A stretch of DNA of 36,980 nt from a virus: the IMG/VR virus record IMGVR_UViG_3300035492_000302, positions 1 through 36,980 of that record, one strand, 5' to 3'. Positions 9,025 through 36,980 of this stretch are shown one piece after another. Below the pieces are notes generated by a model. It did not search any database, was not told the origin of the DNA, and saw only the letters and a program-made list of their open reading frames with translations. The position numbers and the translations under genes are program-made. How positions within the stretch are numbered: the first letter of the stretch is position 1; each line of letters begins with the position of its first letter.

Positions 9025-10200
9025 TTAGGCGTTGATGCGCTGGGAAAAATCAAGCAGGTAGCGATCCGTGATGCGCTGCTGGAACTGCAGGTTTTCCAAC
9101 GGCGGCACGGGCGTGTAGTCGTAATCGATCGTGAGCTTTCCCGATTTCAGGTTATCGACGTTGTTGTACTGCTCGTCGTACCAGGCCACACCGTCGATGA
9201 TGTAGCCGCGCACGCGCAAATCGGCGAATTTGCGGTTAATACCTTCGATAATGTCTTTGATCAGCGATGGGTGCATCGGCTGGTCTACCGCCCACATGTG
9301 AGCCTCGGCGATGGTGTCGGCCAGCACTTGGGCCGTGCGCGTGTAGTTCTCGAACGGGAAAAGGCTTTGCGGGCCGGCGCAGGTGCGCGATCCCCAGAAA
9401 CGAAAACCGGTGCTGTTGATCAAAGTCGTGACGTCGTTTTCGTTCAGGTAGCCCGCATCGGTGGCAGGATCCTGCAGATCCCAGAAAACATCTTTGCTGA
9501 TGCCTGTGACGCCATTGACAACGTAGTTCGACAGCGTTTTGTGCCAGCCGATTTCCTGGTCGATCTTGGCGCGCAAGCCCATGGCCACCGCCACGCTGGA
9601 CATGCCTTGTTCGGCGTTGGCCACAGTATCCCAACTGGTCCAATCTGGCCAGATAACCATAAGCTCGCGTTGGCCGAAAGTTTCGCGGTAAAGCGTGGCC
9701 TCTTCCTTGGTTGCGCACTCCCATGCCGAAACGTAGCCGAACGCGCGCAGCTGCTGTGCAATGGTGGCCAGGGCCACCGCAACGGGCTCTGAATCGAGAA
9801 ATGGCGCGCCCAGGATACGCGGTTTGACCTGAAGACGCGACTGGGCAGCCAGCAAGGCACGCATGCCGGTGTACTGGCCGGTGGGCGATGTGCCGCCGAT
9901 CACGTTGCTGGTGGTTTCTTCAGGCGTCAGGCCTTCAGCCACGCGAACCACAACCGTGACAGGTTTGGTCTGGCTGGCGATCGCTTCGAGCGATTTCCGT
10001 AGCGTCCCTTGCGTTCCAGCCGATCCGATGCCGGTCAGGATGTTGGTCAGAAGTACCGGCGTATCAAGCGGAAAAACGTCGGCATCAGCGTCTTCGGCCG
10101 TTGCAATCAATCCGACCACAGCCGTTGAAACGGTGCGGATGGGGCGCGTGCCCTGGTTGATTTCGAGGACTCGGACGCCGTGGTGATAATCGGTTGTCAT
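9025..10200 (-). CDS. FI: Contractile tail sheath protein FI
   Basis: 391 aa starting MTTDYHHGVRVLEINQGTRPI, a typical sheath N-terminus. It is followed by tube, E and T. Confidence 0.9.
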   Translation of the reverse strand: MTTDYHHGVRVLEINQGTRPIRTVSTAVVGLIATAEDADADVFPLDTPVLLTNILTGIGSAGTQGTLRKSLEAIASQTKPVTVVVRVAEGLTPEETTSNVIGGTSPTGQYTGMRALLAAQSRLQVKPRILGAPFLDSEPVAVALATIAQQLRAFGYVSAWECATKEEATLYRETFGQRELMVIWPDWTSWDTVANAEQGMSSVAVAMGLRAKIDQEIGWHKTLSNYVVNGVTGISKDVFWDLQDPATDAGYLNENDVTTLINSTGFRFWGSRTCAGPQSLFPFENYTRTAQVLADTIAEAHMWAVDQPMHPSLIKDIIEGINRKFADLRVRGYIIDGVAWYDEQYNNVDNLKSGKLTIDYDYTPVPPLENLQFQQRITDRYLLDFSQRINA

Positions 10201-10202
10201 AG

Positions 10203-11267
10203 TTACGCTCCAATGGTGGCGGTGGTAAGAGGAAAGGAACTGAGCAAGTGCGAGCGCAGCCCATAGGTCTGGGCGTGACTAGCGTGTGCAATCCAGCTTT
10301 GAATCACTGGCTGGATCTGCGAAAGCGTGATGCGACGATCGCGGTACAAGCGCTGGAATCGGCGCAACTTTGTTTTCATGCATTTAATGCTGTCAACACG
10401 CAGGCGCCGATGGGTTGGGTAGATTCGATAACCAAGAAAGTCCAATGCGCGCCCGTTGTTTATCCCGATAGGGAAAACCTGGGTTTTATGGTTGGTTCGC
10501 AAGCGCAGCTGCGACCACAGAAAGCTTTCGATGCGTCGGCGTATCTCGTGCAGATGGGTCTTGTCGTGGTGAACCACCACAAAATCATCCATGTACCGGC
10601 AGTAGTAACTCTGGCCAAGATCGTGCTTGACGTACATGTCAAGCTCATGCAGATAGATGTTGGCGCACAGCTGCGAGGTCAGGTTGCCAATGGGAAGGCC
10701 GACCGGCGCGAGTGAGCCTGGCAGCGTGCAAGCGCTGTCGATGATGTTGTCCATCAGGGCAAGGGTGCTTTGGCAGGCGATGTGCCGGCGCAGCAGCTTT
10801 TTAATAATGCCGTGGTCAATGGAAGCGAAGTACTTGCTGATGTCTGCCTTGAGAACGTACACCCTTCCGTGCGATCGATTGACGTTGCGCAAGAAAGTCT
10901 GAGCGCGATTGGCGCCACTGTGCATGCCGCGCCCAACACGGCAGGCGTAGCTGTCGTGGATGAACCGCGCCTCCCAGATCGGTTCGATGACCGAGAACAC
11001 GGCGTGTTGAACAATGCGGTCGCGAAACGGCAGGGCTGCGACCATGCGGGTTTTGGGCTCGTGCACGTAGAACGTGTGATATGAGCCCGTTTGATAGGTG
11101 CCCCAGATCAGCTCGTTTTGAAGTTGGATCAGCTCGCATTCAAGATCGCGCTCGAAGAGCTGAACCTGCGCGTTGTCGCGCTTGCCTTTTCTGGCTTTCA
11201 GGTACGAACGGTACAGATTCTCAAAATCATAGATCTGCTCAAAAAGGTTGGTGTAGGTAACTGCCAT
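10203..11267 (-). CDS. DGR reverse transcriptase
   Basis: I chose the internal start M108 of ORF 10203..11588 (ATG at 11267). Motifs: YMDDFVVV catalytic box and IGNLTSQLCANIYL, the DGR-type (I/L)GxxxSQ motif. TR and avd lie immediately upstream. Confidence 0.9.
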   Translation of the reverse strand: MAVTYTNLFEQIYDFENLYRSYLKARKGKRDNAQVQLFERDLECELIQLQNELIWGTYQTGSYHTFYVHEPKTRMVAALPFRDRIVQHAVFSVIEPIWEARFIHDSYACRVGRGMHSGANRAQTFLRNVNRSHGRVYVLKADISKYFASIDHGIIKKLLRRHIACQSTLALMDNIIDSACTLPGSLAPVGLPIGNLTSQLCANIYLHELDMYVKHDLGQSYYCRYMDDFVVVHHDKTHLHEIRRRIESFLWSQLRLRTNHKTQVFPIGINNGRALDFLGYRIYPTHRRLRVDSIKCMKTKLRRFQRLYRDRRITLSQIQPVIQSWIAHASHAQTYGLRSHLLSSFPLTTATIGA

Positions 11268-11419
11268 GGTCCTGCTTTGGTTGGCGGCCGCGCCGACTTT
11301 CGCAGGGCTACTGGCCTGCGCGGCCTGTTCAGTGTTTCGGCTTTTTGGGCCGGGGATGGCGCGTCCTTTTGAAGGTGCGCTGTCACGCGGCCCGTAAGCC
11401 ACGTGCTTCTGGCATCGCT

Positions 11420-11539
11420 CAAGAGCGGGGCGAAACCCGATGTTGTTGTTGGCGTTGGAGCGCGGATTGTTGAGGTTCAGCGCAGAGGGGCCTGCGTTGG
11501 CACCGTTGTTCCAATTGCCCCCACGAATCGGGAATCGCT
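11420..11539 (-). repeat. DGR template repeat (TR)
   Basis: 120 nt that align without gaps to 11982..12101. It starts 22 nt after the avd stop and is non-coding despite being in frame with the RT ORF. Confidence 0.9.
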
Positions 11540-11560
11540 GTAACGCACCACCCGTAAGCA

Positions 11561-11917
11561 TCATTCGGAGCGTGACCATTTGATCCATCCTCCGACCATG
11601 CGCCCGATTTCCGCCAAGTGGCGTGCCCAGATCTCGTACTTTTTGGTGTCCATGTACTGCAATGAATGCGCCAGGCGCACCATCGATCTGAGCAAATCAA
11701 GCTCGGCGTCAAGATCCTGCAGCGTCGTTTTTTTGTGGTACCGCTTATTGGTCACCACAATCAGGCGCAGTACGCGCAGCATGCTCAAACGTATTTCCGC
11801 AGCGAGCACATGGCGCTCGTGCTTTGGAAACTGGCGAAGCGCTACGTAGCCGTACTGAATCATTGCCTCACACTTTTGGCGAATCTGCAGGTCGTTTTGA
11901 TTGGCGTCGTTGGTCAT
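11561..11917 (-). CDS. avd: DGR accessory variability determinant (Avd)
   Basis: 118-aa basic helical protein. ...ARHLAEIGRMVGGWIKW resembles the Avd C-terminal helix (EVGRILGSWI in BPP-1, from memory). It lies between the target gene and TR. Confidence 0.8.
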   Translation of the reverse strand: MTNDANQNDLQIRQKCEAMIQYGYVALRQFPKHERHVLAAEIRLSMLRVLRLIVVTNKRYHKKTTLQDLDAELDLLRSMVRLAHSLQYMDTKKYEIWARHLAEIGRMVGGWIKWSRSE

Positions 11918-11931
11918 GATCGGTTTTATGA

Positions 11932-11951
11932 GGCTGCGCTACCGCGCAGCC
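11932..11951 (-). promoter_or_regulatory. GC-rich hairpin/cruciform downstream of VR (DGR target-recognition element)
   Basis: ggctgcgc tacc gcgcagcc forms a perfect 8-bp stem with a 4-nt loop, about 30 nt 3' of the VR end. Confidence 0.6.
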
Positions 11952-11973
11952 ATCAGATATCACGCTCCAAATT

Positions 11974-13083
11974 TCAGGCTACAAAAGCGGGGCGAAACCC
12001 GAAGGAGTTGTCGGCGTGGGAGCGCGGAAGGCTGAGGTTCAGCGCAGAGGGGCCCGCGTTGGCACCGTCGGTCCAATTGCCCCCACGAACCGGGAATCGC
12101 TCGCCGTGGTTACGGACATACAGCGTGCCCTCGTGCGTTCCGTCGATTGGATACAAATACAACGACTTGAGGATCCCTGGAGCCGTAACGCTGGCCTCGG
12201 ATGTAAGTGAGCTAAAGGGTGTATTGCCGTCCGTGCCGACCGTGTTTGCGTCGTCGCCCGGCGTACCTTTCTGGAACTCGATAACAGAGTTCAGGCGCGG
12301 CACGTTGCTGACTGCGCTGGTAGCGTCGTACTTGGCTGTGCCGACGCTGCCTGGGTCAACCAGGGCGCCGTCGCTTAGGCGAATCGCGCGCCATGCCGAA
12401 GAGCTCACGCCCATGTCGACGCTGGCCAGAACTGCATCGTTGTTGGCAATGACTTGAATCTCTCCATCAACTAGGCGCATACCAGGAGAGAACTCCCATA
12501 CGTTACCGACAAGATCAGCGATGCCGGTAGGCAGACCGTTGTGACGCCAGCTGGCCGGGCCACTGCCTGTAAAGATGCGCGGATTACCGGCACTTGACGG
12601 GGCAAGGCCACCATCGATGCGCCGGCCAGTTTCCCATGTGGCCGCATGCGAGCGTCCGAAGTTCGTGTTGCCGCGAACAGCAACGTTGTTTGTAGCTTTG
12701 TTCTTCCACATCCACAGCGCCAAAGCAGCGTAAGTCGCATTGGTGCACACGTGCCAGCCTGTGCCATTGGCGCGTGCATATGTTTGTGCTTGCGCCACGG
12801 TAAGCGATACGCTGACATCAACGCCGGGCAAGCTCAGTGCCTGGCCGTCACGCACCGTTGCTTGGTACATGCCAACGAAAATTTCAGGGATCTCCTGACC
12901 GTTGACAATAAAGGCCTCGTGAACACCCGTACCAAGGCTGGGATCGATGTCTTCCTTGCGAAATTTTGGAAGCACATAGACATAAACTGGGTGACTGTTG
13001 TTCTGTGTGTACAAAACGGTGTTCAGGCCACCGCTGGCCGCTTCTACAGCAGCGCGCAGGTTGTCTTTGGTGAAAATACTCAT
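11974..13083 (-). CDS. DGR target protein (Mtd-like receptor-binding tail fibre protein, FGE/C-type-lectin-like C-terminus)
   Basis: 369 aa with a GGAGAT SD. It contains GNVWEF (formylglycine-generating-enzyme-type fold motif). The C-terminus RFPVRGGNWTDGANAGPSALNLSLPRSHADNSFGFRPAFVA is VR-encoded. Confidence 0.85.
   Translation of the reverse strand: MSIFTKDNLRAAVEAASGGLNTVLYTQNNSHPVYVYVLPKFRKEDIDPSLGTGVHEAFIVNGQEIPEIFVGMYQATVRDGQALSLPGVDVSVSLTVAQAQTYARANGTGWHVCTNATYAALALWMWKNKATNNVAVRGNTNFGRSHAATWETGRRIDGGLAPSSAGNPRIFTGSGPASWRHNGLPTGIADLVGNVWEFSPGMRLVDGEIQVIANNDAVLASVDMGVSSSAWRAIRLSDGALVDPGSVGTAKYDATSAVSNVPRLNSVIEFQKGTPGDDANTVGTDGNTPFSSLTSEASVTAPGILKSLYLYPIDGTHEGTLYVRNHGERFPVRGGNWTDGANAGPSALNLSLPRSHADNSFGFRPAFVA
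11982..12101 (-). repeat. DGR variable repeat (VR) at the 3' end of the target gene
   Basis: It differs from TR at plus-strand positions 12003, 12005, 12006, 12012, 12018, 12029, 12030, 12032, 12055, 12069, 12071 and 12090. Every one of these is a T in plus-strand TR, which is an A in the sense strand. Confidence 0.9.
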
Positions 13084-13122: not shown

Positions 13123-13458
13123 TTAGCTGCGCGGCCAGACTGTGATTTCTACGGTGTCCGGATCAAGATCGAGCGGAACCAGTGTTTGCGTGCTATTGGG
13201 CTCGCCCTGCTCGTTGGTGCCGAGCTCGTCGACGGTTTCGGTGCGATAAGCCCGCGCCGGAATGCGTATGTTCAGAACGAACGCGCCTGGGCCATCCAGG
13301 CTGAGGCTGCCGTCAGTGTTCCGATACACGTCGACAATGCGCTCACTATCGTCCTGGTAGTCAGTCGCGTCGATGATGAGCTCGCCCACACTGATGACGG
13401 TGCCGTCGACTGAAAAGTCGCTATGCGGGCCGGGGCCCATGGTTTTGATCATGGCCAT
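13123..13458 (-). CDS. Hypothetical tail-fibre-module protein
   Basis: 111-aa ORF tightly packed between fibre genes. No family recognised. Confidence 0.5.
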   Translation of the reverse strand: MAMIKTMGPGPHSDFSVDGTVISVGELIIDATDYQDDSERIVDVYRNTDGSLSLDGPGAFVLNIRIPARAYRTETVDELGTNEQGEPNSTQTLVPLDLDPDTVEITVWPRS

Positions 13459-13463
13459 GATGT

Positions 13464-14390
13464 TCAGATCTCCATAAGGTTGATAGACCAGCGCAGAACC
13501 ACCGCATCGGCAGCGCTGGCAAGGGTTACACGAAAGCCGTTGCTCGCCCGGGCGCTGATAGACAACGCATCCGATGGCAATGGCGCGCCCGTGGCAGAGA
13601 GCGCATCGAGCGTGAGCCTGTAGCCATCGTTCGGTAAGGAATAGGGAAGCGCCACGAGAATGCTGGCCGGGCTGTTTAGTACGGCAGGGAAGCTTGCTTC
13701 GACGCGGCGAACATCTGTCATGGAAACCGAGTCGAGGGATGGATCGACGCTTGATGTGTTGCCAGCGGGTACGGTGATCCGATACAGCGCCAGCGCATCA
13801 GCGGGTGCGTCGACCCCGAGCATGGTCACGCCAAACTCAATGCCCTCGACTGCAGCGGCGTTTTCGCGCAGGTACACGGTGCATGTCTGGTTGGTTGCGC
13901 CCGGGTTGGGCGGCACCGATGCAGCATTCAGACGTTCGCGCACTGAAAAGCGCCGCCCCTTGAGAAACAGAACGCCGGCAGCCAGATTCAGGTTCCGCGC
14001 TGCATTAGTTGATTTTGTGACCGACAAGCCAGAGACTACGCCGCGATTGGCCAACTCAATCTGCCCTGACTGGTGGCGGTAACGAAGCGTTTTGCGCAAC
14101 TCAGTATCGGCCAGCGCGCTGCGCTCCAAAAGGTCGCGGACAAAGTAGTGCAAGGCGTTCTGATAGTCATGATCCTGAGAGCCGATGCGCTGATCCATCC
14201 CGGCAAGCCGGTTAGGTAATGAGCCGCTGTCGCCAGCCGCTGACTCAAGCTCTTGCTCTACCGCAGTTTGTCGATTATCAAGATCTGCAAAATTCTGGTC
14301 TATTTCTTCGTAGCGCGTGTTCCACAACGATGGAACAGCATCAGGCTCGTTGTTTGGGATGGGGGTGATATTTTGATTCGGCAAGGTCAT
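13464..14390 (-). CDS. Putative tail fibre protein
   Basis: 308 aa. The call rests on its position after the collar-domain gene and on the N-terminal PSLWNTRYEEIDQNFADLDNR, which is fibre-like. Confidence 0.5.
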   Translation of the reverse strand: MTLPNQNITPIPNNEPDAVPSLWNTRYEEIDQNFADLDNRQTAVEQELESAAGDSGSLPNRLAGMDQRIGSQDHDYQNALHYFVRDLLERSALADTELRKTLRYRHQSGQIELANRGVVSGLSVTKSTNAARNLNLAAGVLFLKGRRFSVRERLNAASVPPNPGATNQTCTVYLRENAAAVEGIEFGVTMLGVDAPADALALYRITVPAGNTSSVDPSLDSVSMTDVRRVEASFPAVLNSPASILVALPYSLPNDGYRLTLDALSATGAPLPSDALSISARASNGFRVTLASAADAVVLRWSINLMEI

Positions 14391-14404
14391 GGTGGTGTTC
14401 TCCG

Positions 14405-14782
14405 TTAATAGCGCAGGGTGATGCTGATTTCGTAGCGCTCGTCGCTTTCCTTGAGCTTGGGTGCGAAGGTTTTGAAGCCGACAACTTTTCCGTCCTCGTC
14501 CAGCAGCGCGGCCTCGGAGACGCGCGCGCCCACAAGCTCGGCCTCCTCCAGCGCTCCCCTGCCGGTGGTTTCAAGCGCGTCGCGGGTGACAGTTGTCAGT
14601 GGTTTACGCAGCAGCTCGTTCCAGAGCGTGGTGCGGTTCGGATCCGGCGATTTCGGTGTGAGATCGGGGTTGTGCCCGCCATCGCCAAATGCCATGTAGA
14701 AAATGCGCTTGACTGGCGTGCCGTCATGAGCCTGGCGTGCCAGGCGAAGACGGTAGTCGTAAGCGGTGACCGCTTCAGCCAT
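14405..14782 (-). CDS. Tail-collar fibre N-terminal-domain protein (P2 gpH N-domain-like)
   Basis: IFYMAFGDGGHNPDL...LWNELLRK resembles the P2 H N-terminus (MAVGDGGG...L..EVWR). It lies directly after gene I. Confidence 0.6.
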   Translation of the reverse strand: MAEAVTAYDYRLRLARQAHDGTPVKRIFYMAFGDGGHNPDLTPKSPDPNRTTLWNELLRKPLTTVTRDALETTGRGALEEAELVGARVSEAALLDEDGKVVGFKTFAPKLKESDERYEISITLRY

Positions 14783-16223
14783 AGGATGCTCCCTTGATAA
14801 TCGTGATTAATGAGTGTGGACGCGCCCTTGCCCCCAGGCCCCAGTGGCCGTCCAGGCGCAGGCGACGGGGGGTATCGGTCAGTGGTTCGTAGGTCGCCCC
14901 GTTCATGTCGTAGGCAAGATCGAAGTGGCCCAGCCTGGGCGCAACCTGAAACCTGACCTGGCCAAGGTGCCACGAACCATCCAGGCGACGATGCCGGTAG
15001 CCAAGCTTGGCGGCACGCAGCCTGCCAAGGCGCTCCGGGCTGACGCTGATGTTCTGGCTGGCATCTATCGTGGCTGCGCTGTACGCAGGCAATGGCGTGT
15101 CGCGCCCGATACGAAACCCAAAAGGCTGGCGTCGGCGAGGGGCGCCCACGCGCCAGCTGGCGTCAAGGCGAACCCATGGCGCCAGGCGATTGGGGCGCGA
15201 CGGCAGGCGCGTTGCATTGAGCGGGTAGCTCAAGCTGGTGCTGTCGTGGTAGGTCACAGCCACCCCGATTGGCTGCTCAATGCGTGTTTGCGAGCGCATC
15301 AAGTTATGACTGTCAGCGTCGATCAGGCGAGACCCAAGACGCCAAGATCCGTCCAGACGCCGATCTTTTTGGCCCAAGCGCATGCATGGGCCAACTATCG
15401 TTGGCGCACCATGAATCTGGGCCAGCAGGTGGCTTTGAATCGTGCACTGGCGCAGTGCCAGACCGGGCTTGGCGCCGACTGTCTGACCTAGCCTGAAAGA
15501 TCCGAATGGGCGTGGCAAGGTCACAGTGCTGCCGTCTTTTCCAAGCTGGAACTTGGCATCGTCGTAGTCGCTCAGCACCAGATTGCACCAGGGGTACCTG
15601 CCGGTCGTCTGCTTTTGCAGCAAGGCCCTGGACTGCACCACGATGAGCACCCTGATCAGTAGCGAGAGCACGTACGAATAGATCGGCACCGAACGCTGCG
15701 GTTTCCATGCGTCGATCAGCCGGCGTGCCTGCTCAATGGCTTTGGGGTGCTCCGCCTGAGCAAGATCAAGCTGCACGATGAACTGCGCCCAGTGCTGGAT
15801 TTGAGGCACGCCAGCAACAGCGTCGATCGGGCCGATCTTTTTTGATCCGTCCAGAGACCAGGTGCCGTCTAGGTTCAGTGCGCCAAGCGCATCGTAGATG
15901 GCTCGTTGCTCTTTTTGTTCAATGATGCGCGCGGTCAGCCCCGATCGCTGCACTGCACGCTTTACAGCCCACACCGTGCCGCGCCGGCGATGCAAGGCGA
16001 TTTGACTTGCTACAGCTTCGCGCTTGACCTGCTCGGACCAGTTTTCTTCCCATTCATCGGCGGCAACCGTCCAAGCCAGCCAGGGCAGAAGCTCAATCGG
16101 GCAATCCCATGGGCTCCAAAGAGACCGAATGGGTACCGGTATATCACTGATCTGGCCAAGAACTGACGCGATCGCCCTTTCAACCGGGCTTGCGCTGGGC
16201 GGCAGGAGGTCACGCCTGTCCAT
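14775..16223 (-). CDS. I: Baseplate/tail protein I with a ~300-aa C-terminal extension
   Basis: The N-terminal ~185 aa (LPPSASPVERAIASV...LLPWLAW) are gpI-like. The C-terminal part carries RLDGSWxLG repeats. Confidence 0.75.
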   Translation of the reverse strand: MDRRDLLPPSASPVERAIASVLGQISDIPVPIRSLWSPWDCPIELLPWLAWTVAADEWEENWSEQVKREAVASQIALHRRRGTVWAVKRAVQRSGLTARIIEQKEQRAIYDALGALNLDGTWSLDGSKKIGPIDAVAGVPQIQHWAQFIVQLDLAQAEHPKAIEQARRLIDAWKPQRSVPIYSYVLSLLIRVLIVVQSRALLQKQTTGRYPWCNLVLSDYDDAKFQLGKDGSTVTLPRPFGSFRLGQTVGAKPGLALRQCTIQSHLLAQIHGAPTIVGPCMRLGQKDRRLDGSWRLGSRLIDADSHNLMRSQTRIEQPIGVAVTYHDSTSLSYPLNATRLPSRPNRLAPWVRLDASWRVGAPRRRQPFGFRIGRDTPLPAYSAATIDASQNISVSPERLGRLRAAKLGYRHRRLDGSWHLGQVRFQVAPRLGHFDLAYDMNGATYEPLTDTPRRLRLDGHWGLGARARPHSLITIIKGASYG

Positions 16224-28071: not shown

Positions 28072-28337
28072 CTCCTGTGAGATTAAACCCAGCCGCCCGA
28101 TGCTAAACGGGGTGGGCAGGGCACGTGCGGGTTAGCATACCGGTCACAGGGTCCGGCGGGCCTTGCGGCCCCCCGCACGGCCTGCCCATAGAAGGCAATG
28201 CCATGAGGAGCACCAAAAGCCGCGTACCAATCTAGTGATGGCGCGGCTATTAGCGCCTGTGAACTCGGGATGCTAAACCCGACTGCCAATGGTATTGGCA
28301 GTGCCCTGACGATAGCCCGGGAAGGCGAACAAGTCAA
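28072..28337 (-). promoter_or_regulatory. ant leader: promoter, a1/b1, hairpin plus U-run, c4-like core, a2/b2 over the SD
   Basis: Elements in minus-strand order: promoter TTGACT-17-TATCGT (28337->28309); a1 at 28281->28267; b1 at 28262->28256; hairpin 28248->28218 followed by UUUU; a2 at 28112->28099; b2 at 28080->28074, overlapping the SD AGGAG at 28076->28072. Confidence 0.65.
28112..28190 (-). ncRNA. c4/CI-type antisense RNA core, copy 1
   Basis: The ~79-nt core folds into four elements: P1 GGGCAGG/CCUGCCC, P2 UGCGGG/CCCGCA, hairpin GGGCC-GCAA-GGCCC and hairpin CCGG-ACCCUGUGA-CCGG. It carries b' (CCUGUGA) and a' (AUGCUAACCCG), which are complementary to the flanking a1/b1 and a2/b2. It is paralogous to 36488..36569, with compensatory stem changes. 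Confidence 0.7.
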
Positions 28338-29360: not shown

Positions 29361-29397
29361 ACCGCCTAGGGGCGCAATCCCTAGGCGGTTTTTCTTT
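29361..29397 (+). terminator. Strong hairpin plus T-run (bidirectional terminator; contains the int stop codon)
   Basis: accgcctaggg gcgcaat ccctaggcggt is an 11-bp perfect stem followed by TTTTTCTTT. On the minus strand it is followed by TTTTAA. Confidence 0.65.
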
Positions 29398-30583
29398 GTG
29401 TGGGGGACTTTTGGGGGACTTTTCCGCCAACAACCTCGATCTGCGATCGGCGCAATATGGCCAGCAGATTGATAGTCTCCCCCACGCAACCCTCTTCTTT
29501 GATCAGTTCCAGTGCCGCATAAACTTCGCGGATCTGGGCTACTGCGTAATGGCTGGTCATGTCTCGTTTCGAGTGCCAAAGAATCTCATCTTGCGTACGC
29601 TCGGAAACGCCGGCGTTTCGCAAGCGCATTCCGACCGTGTGCCGCAAGTCGTGAACGTGCAGATCGCCCAGCCCTGCAGAGGCTCTGGCGTTCTGCCAGG
29701 CCGTGTTGTGCATATCACTGATCGGCAAGTACTTTGGCTTGCTGCCGAGCTTATTTGACACGCGCCTTGACCAGGTAAACACCCGCTCAGGGTGGCGGCC
29801 GCGCTGCGCGTCAATGATCTGCTGCCCAAGGCTGTTGCAAAAAAGAAGCCGTTCGGACTTGCGGCCTTTGACGTACTCACGCGGCACCACAAAAACCGAG
29901 ACTGTCGTCTGTTCAGACAGGGGCACCTGAACTTCCCAGCGCCAACGTAGCTGGCACACGACATTCTTACGGGCACCGCTGTTCAGGCAGAACATGGCCA
30001 TGTCGACCAGGTGGGTCGGCAGGTGCTGCATCAACAACTTTTGTTCGGCCCATGTGATTGGCTGTGGTGCGCGCTGGTCGCTCAGATCAAGCATCGTTAT
30101 TTTGGGTGCCGATTCCAGCCAGGTCAGACGATTCTCAGGAAACCGCCATTGGGTCGCCGCCAGGCGAAGGATCCTGCCGACAATCGATAGCGTGTTGTTC
30201 AGGGTTTTGTTTTTGATGCCCTGGCGCTTACGCTCGCGAATGAAGCCGGCAAGTGTTTCGTCGCATATATCCTGAAGTGTTAAAGAGCCCAGCCTCTGAA
30301 CGACCGGCAGTAACAGATAGGCGTCTGTTTCAGCCGATGGCATGTTTTTGGCTTCTTTCTCTTCCAGATAACGGGTTGCTGCGCGCTCGAAGGTGACATC
30401 CGGCCTTGCGGCCGGGTTGTCGGAAAACTGCTGGATGCTGAATTGTTCCCGCGTCAGGTAGTCTCTCGCCTGCCTGTGATCCGTAAAGCCACGCTTTCGA
30501 ATGCGCCTGTTTCGGTACTGACAGTCGACCTGCCATGTGCCGTCCGATTCCTGGTAGATGCCTGTTTGTTTGACTCGTACCAT
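29381..30583 (-). CDS. int: Tyrosine recombinase / phage integrase
   Basis: 400 aa. The C-terminal catalytic-region motifs HDLRHTVGMRL and ...LWHSKRDMTSHY (R..HxxR..Y pattern) are present. It is adjacent to the tRNA-like attP. Confidence 0.9.
   Translation of the reverse strand: MVRVKQTGIYQESDGTWQVDCQYRNRRIRKRGFTDHRQARDYLTREQFSIQQFSDNPAARPDVTFERAATRYLEEKEAKNMPSAETDAYLLLPVVQRLGSLTLQDICDETLAGFIRERKRQGIKNKTLNNTLSIVGRILRLAATQWRFPENRLTWLESAPKITMLDLSDQRAPQPITWAEQKLLMQHLPTHLVDMAMFCLNSGARKNVVCQLRWRWEVQVPLSEQTTVSVFVVPREYVKGRKSERLLFCNSLGQQIIDAQRGRHPERVFTWSRRVSNKLGSKPKYLPISDMHNTAWQNARASAGLGDLHVHDLRHTVGMRLRNAGVSERTQDEILWHSKRDMTSHYAVAQIREVYAALELIKEEGCVGETINLLAILRRSQIEVVGGKVPQKSPTQRKTA
29402..29423 (+). 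repeat. GGGGGACTTTT x2 in tandem, P'-arm copies (inside the int 3' end)
   Basis: Two abutting exact copies ~75 nt downstream of the core. Confidence 0.45.
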
Positions 30584-36442: not shown

Positions 36443-36719
36443 CTCCTTTTGTCGTGGTAGGAGTCCACCGCCTCGCTGCTAAACGGGGTGGGCGGACACA
36501 TGCGGGTTAGCAGACCGGGACAAAGGAACCGGCAGGGGCTTGCGCCCCTCCCGCACGGCCCGCCCATAGAGGGTGCCATGCTGCTGCGCACAGACGAAAA
36601 GAAAGCCGCGTGAACGGGATTTTGGCGGCTGTGCGCCTTTGTCATCCGGGCTGCTAAACCCGTGCGCTGGTTGTTTGCCAGCACAGGGGAAGTATAGCCC
36701 GGATGTAGCGGTTGGTGAA
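36443..36719 (-). promoter_or_regulatory. Primase-operon leader: promoter, a1/b1, hairpin plus U-run, c4-like core, a2/b2 over the SD
   Basis: Elements in minus-strand order: promoter TTCACC-17-TATACT (36719->36691); a1 at 36662->36648; b1 GACAAAGG at 36643->36636; hairpin 36630->36604 followed by UUCUUUU; a2 at 36488->36475; b2 GACAAAAGG at 36453->36445, overlapping the SD at 36448->36443. Confidence 0.65.
36488..36569 (-). ncRNA. c4/CI-type antisense RNA core, copy 2
   Basis: The ~82-nt core folds into four elements: P1 GGGCGG/CCGCCC, P2 UGCGGG/CCCGCA, hairpin AGGGGC-GCAA-GCCCCU and hairpin CCGG-UUCCUUUGUC-CCGG. It carries b' (CCUUUGUC) and a' (CUGCUAACCCG). Confidence 0.7.
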
Positions 36720-36735
36720 GGGTGTGATGCACGGG

Positions 36736-36980
36736 TCAAGCCTCCAGTGGCAGTTCCGTCTGGCCAGACAGCGGCACAGGCACACCCATTTCTGCATAGA
36801 TTTGGTGTATCAGTGTGGTTAGCGAGGCCCGCTCGCGCGGGCAGCTCGTATGGCCGCGCATCTTGCTCAGCGCCAGCAGATCATGAAGCGTTGATTTTTT
36901 GACGGCGGCACCCTTGGTTTCGTAGTCGTGCAGGGCATCGGCCCATTCCTTGATCTTGACGACCAGACGATCTGCGGCGT
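36736..36980 (-). CDS. C-terminal part of the junction-spanning P22 Ant N-like gene (same gene as 1..452)
   Basis: The frame continues from position 1 through 36853 to the TGA at 36738->36736: ...MRGHTSCPRERASLTTLIHQIYAEMGVPVPLSGQTELPLEA. The full gene is 570 nt (189 aa). Confidence 0.6.
   Translation of the reverse strand, partial: AADRLVVKIKEWADALHDYETKGAAVKKSTLHDLLALSKMRGHTSCPRERASLTTLIHQIYAEMGVPVPLSGQTELPLEA
36854..36980. repeat. Terminal overlap, right copy (identical to 1..127)
   Basis: Same 127-nt string as 1..127. This is consistent with an assembler overlap on a circular molecule. Confidence 0.95.

Follow-up and report, generated by a model that had tools for sequence, protein, structure and literature searches.

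The prototype of the diversity-generating retroelements (DGRs) is the locus of the Bordetella phage BPP-1, in which the target gene mtd is accompanied by avd, a template region (TR) and the reverse transcriptase (RT) gene brt. A further DGR is known from the Vibrio phage VHML, a cultured P2-like myovirus (Vhmlvirus). Among DGR variable proteins, the structure of TaqVP from Thermus aquaticus (PDB ID: 5VF4) displays a C-type-lectin fold of the FGE subtype with a C-terminal variable region (VR) (10.1101/432187). Here we describe a 36,980-nt stretch of viral DNA (IMG/VR record IMGVR_UViG_3300035492_000302, positions 1 to 36,980; hereafter the window). We consider it highly probable that the window represents a P2-like temperate phage with a circular genome of 36.85 kb, and that this phage carries a complete canonical DGR of the BPP-1/VHML type whose target is of the TaqVP type. 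This type of system is already well known, and the element is a textbook example rather than a new system. It adds one more well-preserved phage DGR and brings no conceptual change.

The minus strand of the window carries, in order, the target, a hairpin, avd, the TR, a 152-nt spacer (Sp) and the RT. The same target-avd-TR-spacer-RT order, on one strand, is found in BPP-1, where the spacer measures 144 nt. Both loci have the VR at the C-terminus of the target, adenine-only mismatches, and a GC-rich core of the site where mutagenic homing is initiated (IMH) together with a GC-rich hairpin bearing a GRNA loop. They also share a tetraloop hairpin of the spacer RNA right after the TR, a TR:Sp duplex and an upstream:downstream duplex. 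However, the target in the window has no detectable sequence similarity to Mtd, and BPP-1 is a podovirus, whereas the window phage is a P2-like myovirus. The TR of BPP-1 is 134 nt long, compared with 120 nt and 27 adenines in the window. In BPP-1 the hairpin lies 4 nt from the VR, whereas in the window a 7-nt periodic array takes up the 30 nt between the two.

VHML and the window share one gene order in the tail module (J, I, tail fibre, FGE/SUMF1-like target, (avd), RT, sheath FI, tube FII, E, T). Its DGR target is 37% identical to that of the window over the full length, and a GGTA-loop hairpin follows TAACTG-type repeats; VHML has been named among the hairpin-bearing DGRs (PMC3240598). Conversely, the nucleotide match to VHML is patchy (about 70-74%), the VHML target is longer (410 aa), an extra open reading frame (ORF) separates its RT and sheath genes, and its host is Vibrio. 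TaqVP is a full-length homologue of the window target, with a C-terminal VR, the same RGGxW...RS...G.RPAFV scaffold and AAY-encoded variable positions. It has nine variable residues, compared with 13 AAY/ATY-encoded ones in the window. TaqVP, which is monomeric in the crystal, has been discussed as possibly intracellular, whereas the window protein is encoded in a phage tail-fibre slot.

Results and Discussion

Adenine-Specific Differences between the Two Repeats

The TR and VR are 89% identical, with 13 mismatches in 120 nt. Our recomputed comparison reproduces the gapless alignment at an offset of 562 given in a preliminary description of this DNA, and the twelve mismatch sites that it listed (11441, 11443, 11444, 11450, 11456, 11467, 11468, 11470, 11493, 11507, 11509 and 11528) are all exact. 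The plus-strand T at each of these sites is a sense-strand adenine, as had been claimed, since the genes here lie on the minus strand. Twelve of the 27 sense adenines of the TR are thus changed in the VR and 15 are kept. All three other bases serve as replacements on the sense strand (five A>G, four A>C and three A>T changes). Nine of the 12 changed adenines belong to AAC or AAT codons, in line with the Asn-codon bias noted earlier; the other three are in ATT, in ATC and in the third position of GCA. The last of these changes, GCA>GCG, would not be produced by protein-level selection because it is silent. The TR and VR peptides quoted in the preliminary description are correct.

The restriction to adenines is statistically strong. 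Fisher's exact test on adenine versus non-adenine sites gives p = 1.9e-8, and the probability that 12 of 12 internal mismatches fall on the 27 adenines is 1.6e-9. The TR and VR form the single long direct-repeat pair in the window apart from its terminal overlap, and no additional VR-like copy was found within the window. By computation, the TR opens a sequence space of 4^27 DNA variants, or about 1.4e14 peptide variants.

The same asymmetry is found in the relatives of this locus. A scan limited to one genome per species returned 80 loci, 55 of which have Avd and 54 an RT downstream. The nearest relatives carrying Avd and RT belong to Pseudogulbenkiania and Craterilacuibacter, with 70% RT identity. 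In 41 clean TR/VR pairs of the family, mismatches occur at 510 of 998 template adenines, compared with 27 of 1534 cytosines, 4 of 1371 guanines and 17 of 886 thymines.

It is accepted that adenine-only mismatches with all three replacement bases are the footprint of DGR mutagenic retrohoming. The window displays this footprint beside machinery that looks intact, which supports the earlier claim of past mutagenic homing. As far as the sequence can tell, homing took place in this lineage; the pattern neither dates that homing nor indicates that it continues. An ordinary duplication, altered later through point mutation, gene conversion or selection and without reverse transcription, would account for a direct repeat, and the existence of that repeat is all that speaks for it. 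We regard this explanation as practically negligible: all 12 internal mismatches, one of them silent, are at template adenines (p about 1e-9), RT and Avd genes are adjacent, and the 41 family pairs have the same bias. A deaminase model also fails, because A goes to G, C and T.

The thirteenth mismatch is at position 11423, 4 nt from the 3' end of the repeat, where the sense base is C in the TR and T in the VR. The preliminary description had stated that all non-adenine positions are identical. This is true of the internal positions, and the 15 remaining adenines are indeed kept, but 11423 differs near the repeat end (the title of that description, which spoke of internal mismatches, allows for it). 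Most C mismatches in the family are of this type, with GCT followed by CT(T/C)G in the TR and by TT(T/C)G in the VR. The mismatch is no counter-example, because its position in the zone of IMH and its TR copy (IMH*) is 3' of where the cDNA is predicted to begin, and because the same C/T difference is seen in most relatives. It is therefore a family-wide IMH*/IMH difference rather than an exception to adenine specificity.

Table 1. Features of the DGR locus and of the surrounding phage genome (window coordinates)
Feature	Position	Strand	Description
Tail sheath gene	9025-10200	minus	Phage_sheath_1 and Phage_sheath_1C matches; immediately downstream of RT
DGR reverse transcriptase	10203-11267	minus	354 aa; start MAVTYTNLF; RVT_1 match
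Spacer (Sp) of DGR RNA	11268-11419	minus	152 nt
Possible long Sp stem	11286-11325	minus	single-sequence fold only
Small Sp stem-loop	11337-11353	minus	followed by A-run
Sp strand CUUCAAAAG	11366-11374	minus	predicted template:primer duplex with TR 3' end 11417-11425 (CUCUUGAGC)
Sp hairpin	11385-11404	minus	UACG loop, directly after TR; analogous to Avd-binding stem-loop
Template region (TR)	11420-11539	minus	120 nt, 27 sense adenines; 11 AAY codons, 2 ATY, 4 others
RNA segment GGGUGGUGCGU	11543-11553	minus	just upstream of TR; pairs with Sp 11354-11364; analogous to BPP-1 'cPRT Stop' duplex
avd, accessory variability determinant	11561-11917	minus	118 aa
Hairpin/cruciform GGCTGCGC-GGTA-GCGCAGCC	11932-11951	minus	8-bp GC-rich stem, GRNA tetraloop, 30 nt downstream of VR
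Periodic array	11944-11985	minus	six 7-nt units, TTTGTAG CCTGAAA TTTGGAG CGTGATA TCTGATG GCTGCGC; VR end into hairpin; includes TGA stop codon
Target (variable protein) gene	11974-13083	minus	369 aa; TaqVP-family C-type-lectin fold by homology; VR = C-terminus
Variable region (VR)	11982-12101	minus	120 nt; 12 adenine-templated differences from TR
IMH core, GC-rich 14-mer GGGTTTCGCCCCGC	11987-12000	minus	VR 3' end; identical to TR 11425-11438
Upstream tail-fibre/baseplate context	13123-16223	minus	Tail_P2_I match; PHROG tail matches; module conserved in relatives
111-aa protein	13123-13458	minus
308-aa protein	13464-14390	minus
125-aa tail-collar-like protein	14405-14782	minus
gpI-like gene	14775-16223	minus
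Integrase	29381-30583

Reverse Transcriptase and Avd

Over its full length (338 aa aligned), the RT shares 38% identity with BPP-1 Brt. In the PDB it matches best to the 328-aa RT of entry 8ub7 and to eight sister entries (E 1.3e-60), compared with 4e-19 for group II RTs, and it matches phrog_1423 with E 4e-141. A Brt-like protein with I/LGxxxSQ and YMDD motifs was taken to belong to the DGR clade; alignment to Brt reveals IGNLTSQ and YMDD, and these motifs, with the matches above, place the window RT in that clade. The Brt residues K29, F66, R74, I181, G182, Q187, D138, D215 and D216 are conserved in the alignment, while I76 is replaced by V. They comprise residues named as template and nucleotide contacts in a cryo-electron microscopy (cryo-EM) study of BPP-1 (10.1101/2023.10.23.563531), together with the catalytic aspartates. 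Identification as a group II intron RT was rejected (144.6 bits against a cutoff of 300), as was identification as a retron RT (58.5 bits for retron St85 against a cutoff of 235). No intron or retron RNA from Rfam was found on the window.

Avd scores 127.9 bits against NF033474 (DivGenRetAVD), for which the NCBIfam equivalog cutoff is 80, and it matches PF22296 (bAvd) at 1e-32. It is 28% identical to BPP-1 Avd. By these matches the gene beside the TR can be identified as the avd of a DGR.

The reading frame 10203-11588 (minus strand) has no stop between the RT and the TR and spacer that precede it, and ORF finders and public gene calls give an 'RT' of 458-461 aa that includes the TR; the Logan gene calls shorten the 461-aa ORF to 458 aa. 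We rejected this 461-aa TR-spacer-RT fusion as a real gene, as the ATG at 11267 aligns with the MAKTY start of the relatives.

Structured RNA and Proposed Route of Homing

The BPP-1 ribonucleoprotein contains an Avd-binding stem-loop, a template:primer duplex, and a cPRT-Stop duplex with a stem-loop (10.1101/2023.10.23.563531). These RNA elements match the helices of the window in order and position; the spacer strand of the TR:Sp duplex is Sp47-56 in BPP-1 and Sp46-54 here. To evaluate the helices, we aligned the window with 17 relatives (18 sequences) in two ways, A2 covering the TR 3' end and spacer and A3 the whole avd-3'/TR/spacer region. Support was assessed by RNAalifold and direct pair counting, with slid-partner and shuffle controls. 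Duplexfold applied to the upstream region and the spacer gave noisy results (z-scores close to 0), and alignment-based counting was used instead.

Five helices are supported, each 80-100% paired and each with compensatory changes. The proportion of paired cells is 94% in A2 and 84% in A3, compared with 41-55% for slid partners, and none of 500 shuffles reached the observed values. In the post-TR hairpin, six of eight pairs have compensatory changes. The TR:Sp duplex switches from U-A to C-G in seven of the 18 sequences and is accompanied by a 2-bp extension helix. The duplex between the segment upstream of the TR and the spacer comprises 11 bp in the window; in A3, 80.6% of its cells are paired, and seven of the 11 pairs have compensatory changes. 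From this covariation, the transcript appears to be a structured DGR RNA with an Avd-binding stem-loop, a TR:Sp primer duplex and an upstream:downstream duplex. The 18-sequence alignment thereby provides covariation support, from an independent DGR lineage, for the RNA elements of the BPP-1 cryo-EM structure.

We propose that, by analogy with BPP-1, RNA comprising the avd 3' end, the TR and the spacer folds around the RT and an Avd pentamer. The spacer strand would then base-pair with the TR 3' end, and cDNA synthesis would be cis-primed from the spacer, beginning at about G11426, just 5' of the TR:Sp duplex. Position 11423 belongs to the segment that forms this duplex and would escape copying. 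The RT would misincorporate opposite template adenines, and the adenine-mutagenised cDNA would replace the 3'-terminal VR of the target gene. This last step would be guided by the GC-rich IMH core, the sequence between core and hairpin, and the GRNA hairpin.

Elements at the Target Site

The 14-mer at the 3' end of the VR is analogous to the (GC)14 element of BPP-1 (PMC3240598). After GCT, the TR continues with CTTGAGCG and the VR with TTTGTAGCC, and the same divergence is seen in the relatives. IMH and IMH* have in common a GC-rich core followed by divergent sequence, and the two ends can be assigned accordingly on their sequences.

The hairpin downstream of the VR agrees with a rule published for such elements (PMC3240598), under which a GC-rich stem of 7-10 bp carries a GRNA loop and is separated from the VR by 4-34 bp. 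Its DNA fold has a z-score of -2.6. The hairpins of the relatives have differing, covarying stems, with loops of GATA, GGTA, GAGA or GAAA. Judged by stem, loop and position, it is the counterpart of the GC-rich inverted repeats found downstream of the VR in other DGRs.

Between the VR end and the hairpin lies the periodic array. It is the sole run in the window of at least six TG at 7-nt spacing, with 0.005 expected per shuffle, and no 7-nt array follows the TR. Its units can be written as NYTG plus 3 nt. Of 37 DGR-bearing relatives, which range from Proteobacteria to Firmicutes, most have an array of this kind, with a period of 7-8 nt and units of (A/T)ATCTG or (A/T)(A/T)ATCTG form. In these 37 relatives, TCTG is 14.5-fold enriched in the 45 nt past the VR, and the CTG-to-CTG spacing is 7 nt in 38 cases and 8 nt in 26 cases (together 64 of 81). 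In VHML, TAACTG-type units precede the GGTA-loop hairpin. The IMH of BPP-1 has a weaker array (TCTG..CCTGA..CTTG), and its IMH* lacks the central CCTGA. The array is missing in eight of nine examined target homologues without detected Avd or RT; in two of these, from Pseudomonas (L022 and L028), a plain terminator occupies its place. A Janthinobacterium locus (L035, 5080-5200) without detected avd or RT keeps both array and hairpin directly upstream of the sheath gene, which suggests that its DGR has been lost or that the target is served in trans.

The array is probably the family form of the IMH '21-bp element'. It is possible, although we put it forward only tentatively and hold it to be somewhat improbable, that the array is a previously undescribed family-wide target-site determinant (the IMH '21-bp element'), read by the DGR ribonucleoprotein or by a host factor during cDNA integration. 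Alternatively, it may be a post-transcriptional element like the TAACTGA heptamer repeats found upstream of start codons in Beggiatoaceae and Cyanobacteria, for which no function is known (PMC4679880). No mention of the 7-nt periodicity was found in the DGR papers searched by term, among them PMC3240598, or in a wider term search. It is the one item in this locus that may add something new, and it offers a concrete, mutable candidate for what a DGR recognises at its target.

Target Protein

The VR spans the last 40 codons of the 369-aa target. As a single sequence, the target matches TaqVP (PDB ID: 5VF4) over residues 4-368 with E 1.6e-98, and a family profile of 43 sequences matches it with E 5.5e-160. 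The target also matches phrog_2889 (E 1e-120). Of 8,000 candidates scored, at least 749 passed as relatives at E ≤ 1e-5, and the majority of these relatives are about 365 aa long. In the target alignment, those columns in which no residue predominates fall at the AAY/ATY-encoded positions of the TR, and they are set in the scaffold RGGxWxxGxxAG...LxLxxxRSxxxxxxGxRPAFV. By its homology to TaqVP, the gene that has the VR at its 3' end codes for a protein with the C-type-lectin fold; DGR targets are ligand-binding proteins of this fold or of the Ig fold.

We infer that changes in the VR would alter receptor binding and host range, because a diversified TaqVP-type C-type-lectin protein sits in the tail-fibre slot. 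That a P2-like phage has a full-length homologue of TaqVP in its tail-fibre slot speaks for receptor binding as the role of this family, whose solved member had no assigned function.

State of the Element and Points against the Assignment

Our identification of the locus as a complete canonical DGR draws on the repeat pair, whose mismatches are confined to adenines, on homology for all three proteins, on RNA helices that covary, and on the hairpin and its genomic surroundings. Several observations weigh against this picture, or against parts of it. The VR is identical to that of the window in the Logan assemblies SRR11791769 and SRR11791770 (L001 and L002), and the 90% cluster of the target has a single member. 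The hint of a second allele consists of one base at a contig end (L003, described below). The long 3' stem of the spacer, which would be the RT-binding one, is only 57% paired on the alignment. The target has no direct Pfam or NCBIfam match, and its fold assignment relies on the homology to 5VF4. Its putative tail-fibre role follows from gene position only, and the authors of the TaqVP study proposed a possible intracellular role (10.1101/432187).

It is conceivable that the element is a relic, in which homing occurred in an ancestor, the DGR is now inactive and the VR is a fixed allele. A single VR allele in both of the other VR-covering assemblies and the single-member cluster agree with this, and decay does occur in the family, as the 11 non-adenine mismatches of one Stutzerimonas stutzeri locus (L012) illustrate. 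However, we consider a relic unlikely. The RT, Avd and target ORFs are intact, as are all cis elements and RNA helices, and the RT has kept its residues for catalysis and template contact. There is not one internal non-adenine mismatch, and a contig from another sample starts with a different base at a variable site. By analogy with BPP-1, the DGR may still be active.

The contig from the other sample (L003, 996 nt, JGI 3300035493) begins inside the VR at 12003, an adenine-templated site at which it reads A and the window reads T, and is otherwise identical to the window. This first base is compatible with a second VR allele or with an assembly break at the hypervariable region. Searches for further alleles gave nothing more: an A>N degenerate TR/VR pattern had 0 matches in viral_contigs and 0 in metagenome_contigs, the VR 3' flank had 0 matches in metagenome_contigs, and lookups by Avd and by the 111-aa neighbour returned the same phage only.

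The VR of the window might also be an assembly chimera of coexisting alleles, so that the 12-site pattern would be no real haplotype. The window comes from a metagenome assembly whose ends overlap by 127 nt, hypervariable regions are places where assemblers break or merge sequences, and L003 does break inside the VR. Conversely, an identical VR was independently assembled from two runs (L001 and L002), and the reading frame is intact, which makes a chimera very improbable.

Phage Genome and Relatives

The contig ends in an exact 127-nt direct repeat (1-127 and 36854-36980), and the assembly is therefore circular, with 36,853 bp. Pfam matches identify a P2-family capsid, a GPO scaffold, a gpP-type terminase, a portal, gpD, baseplate V/W/J/I, sheath and tube. 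Together with the integrase, this gene content assigns the phage to the P2-like temperate myoviruses. The DGR is located between gpI with three small tail-fibre-region genes on one side and the sheath gene on the other. The module gpI-p125-p308-p111-target-avd-RT-sheath-tube is common to many relatives.

Some relatives depart from this arrangement. The Stutzerimonas stutzeri locus has 14 adenine mismatches in addition to the 11 non-adenine ones; it may be a decaying DGR, or its VR may have drifted after homing was lost. In L022, L028 and a third locus (L041), all in P2-like prophages, a TaqVP-like tail gene is directly followed by the sheath gene, and no avd or RT was detected.

Two Rfam matches to C4 antisense RNA (P1/P7-type immunity RNA) lie above the gathering score, at 28108-28193 and 36484-36571, both on the minus strand. 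One is just upstream of a gene for a Bro-N protein and the other is upstream of a gene for a 952-aa Toprim primase-like protein; the two copies are about 80% identical.

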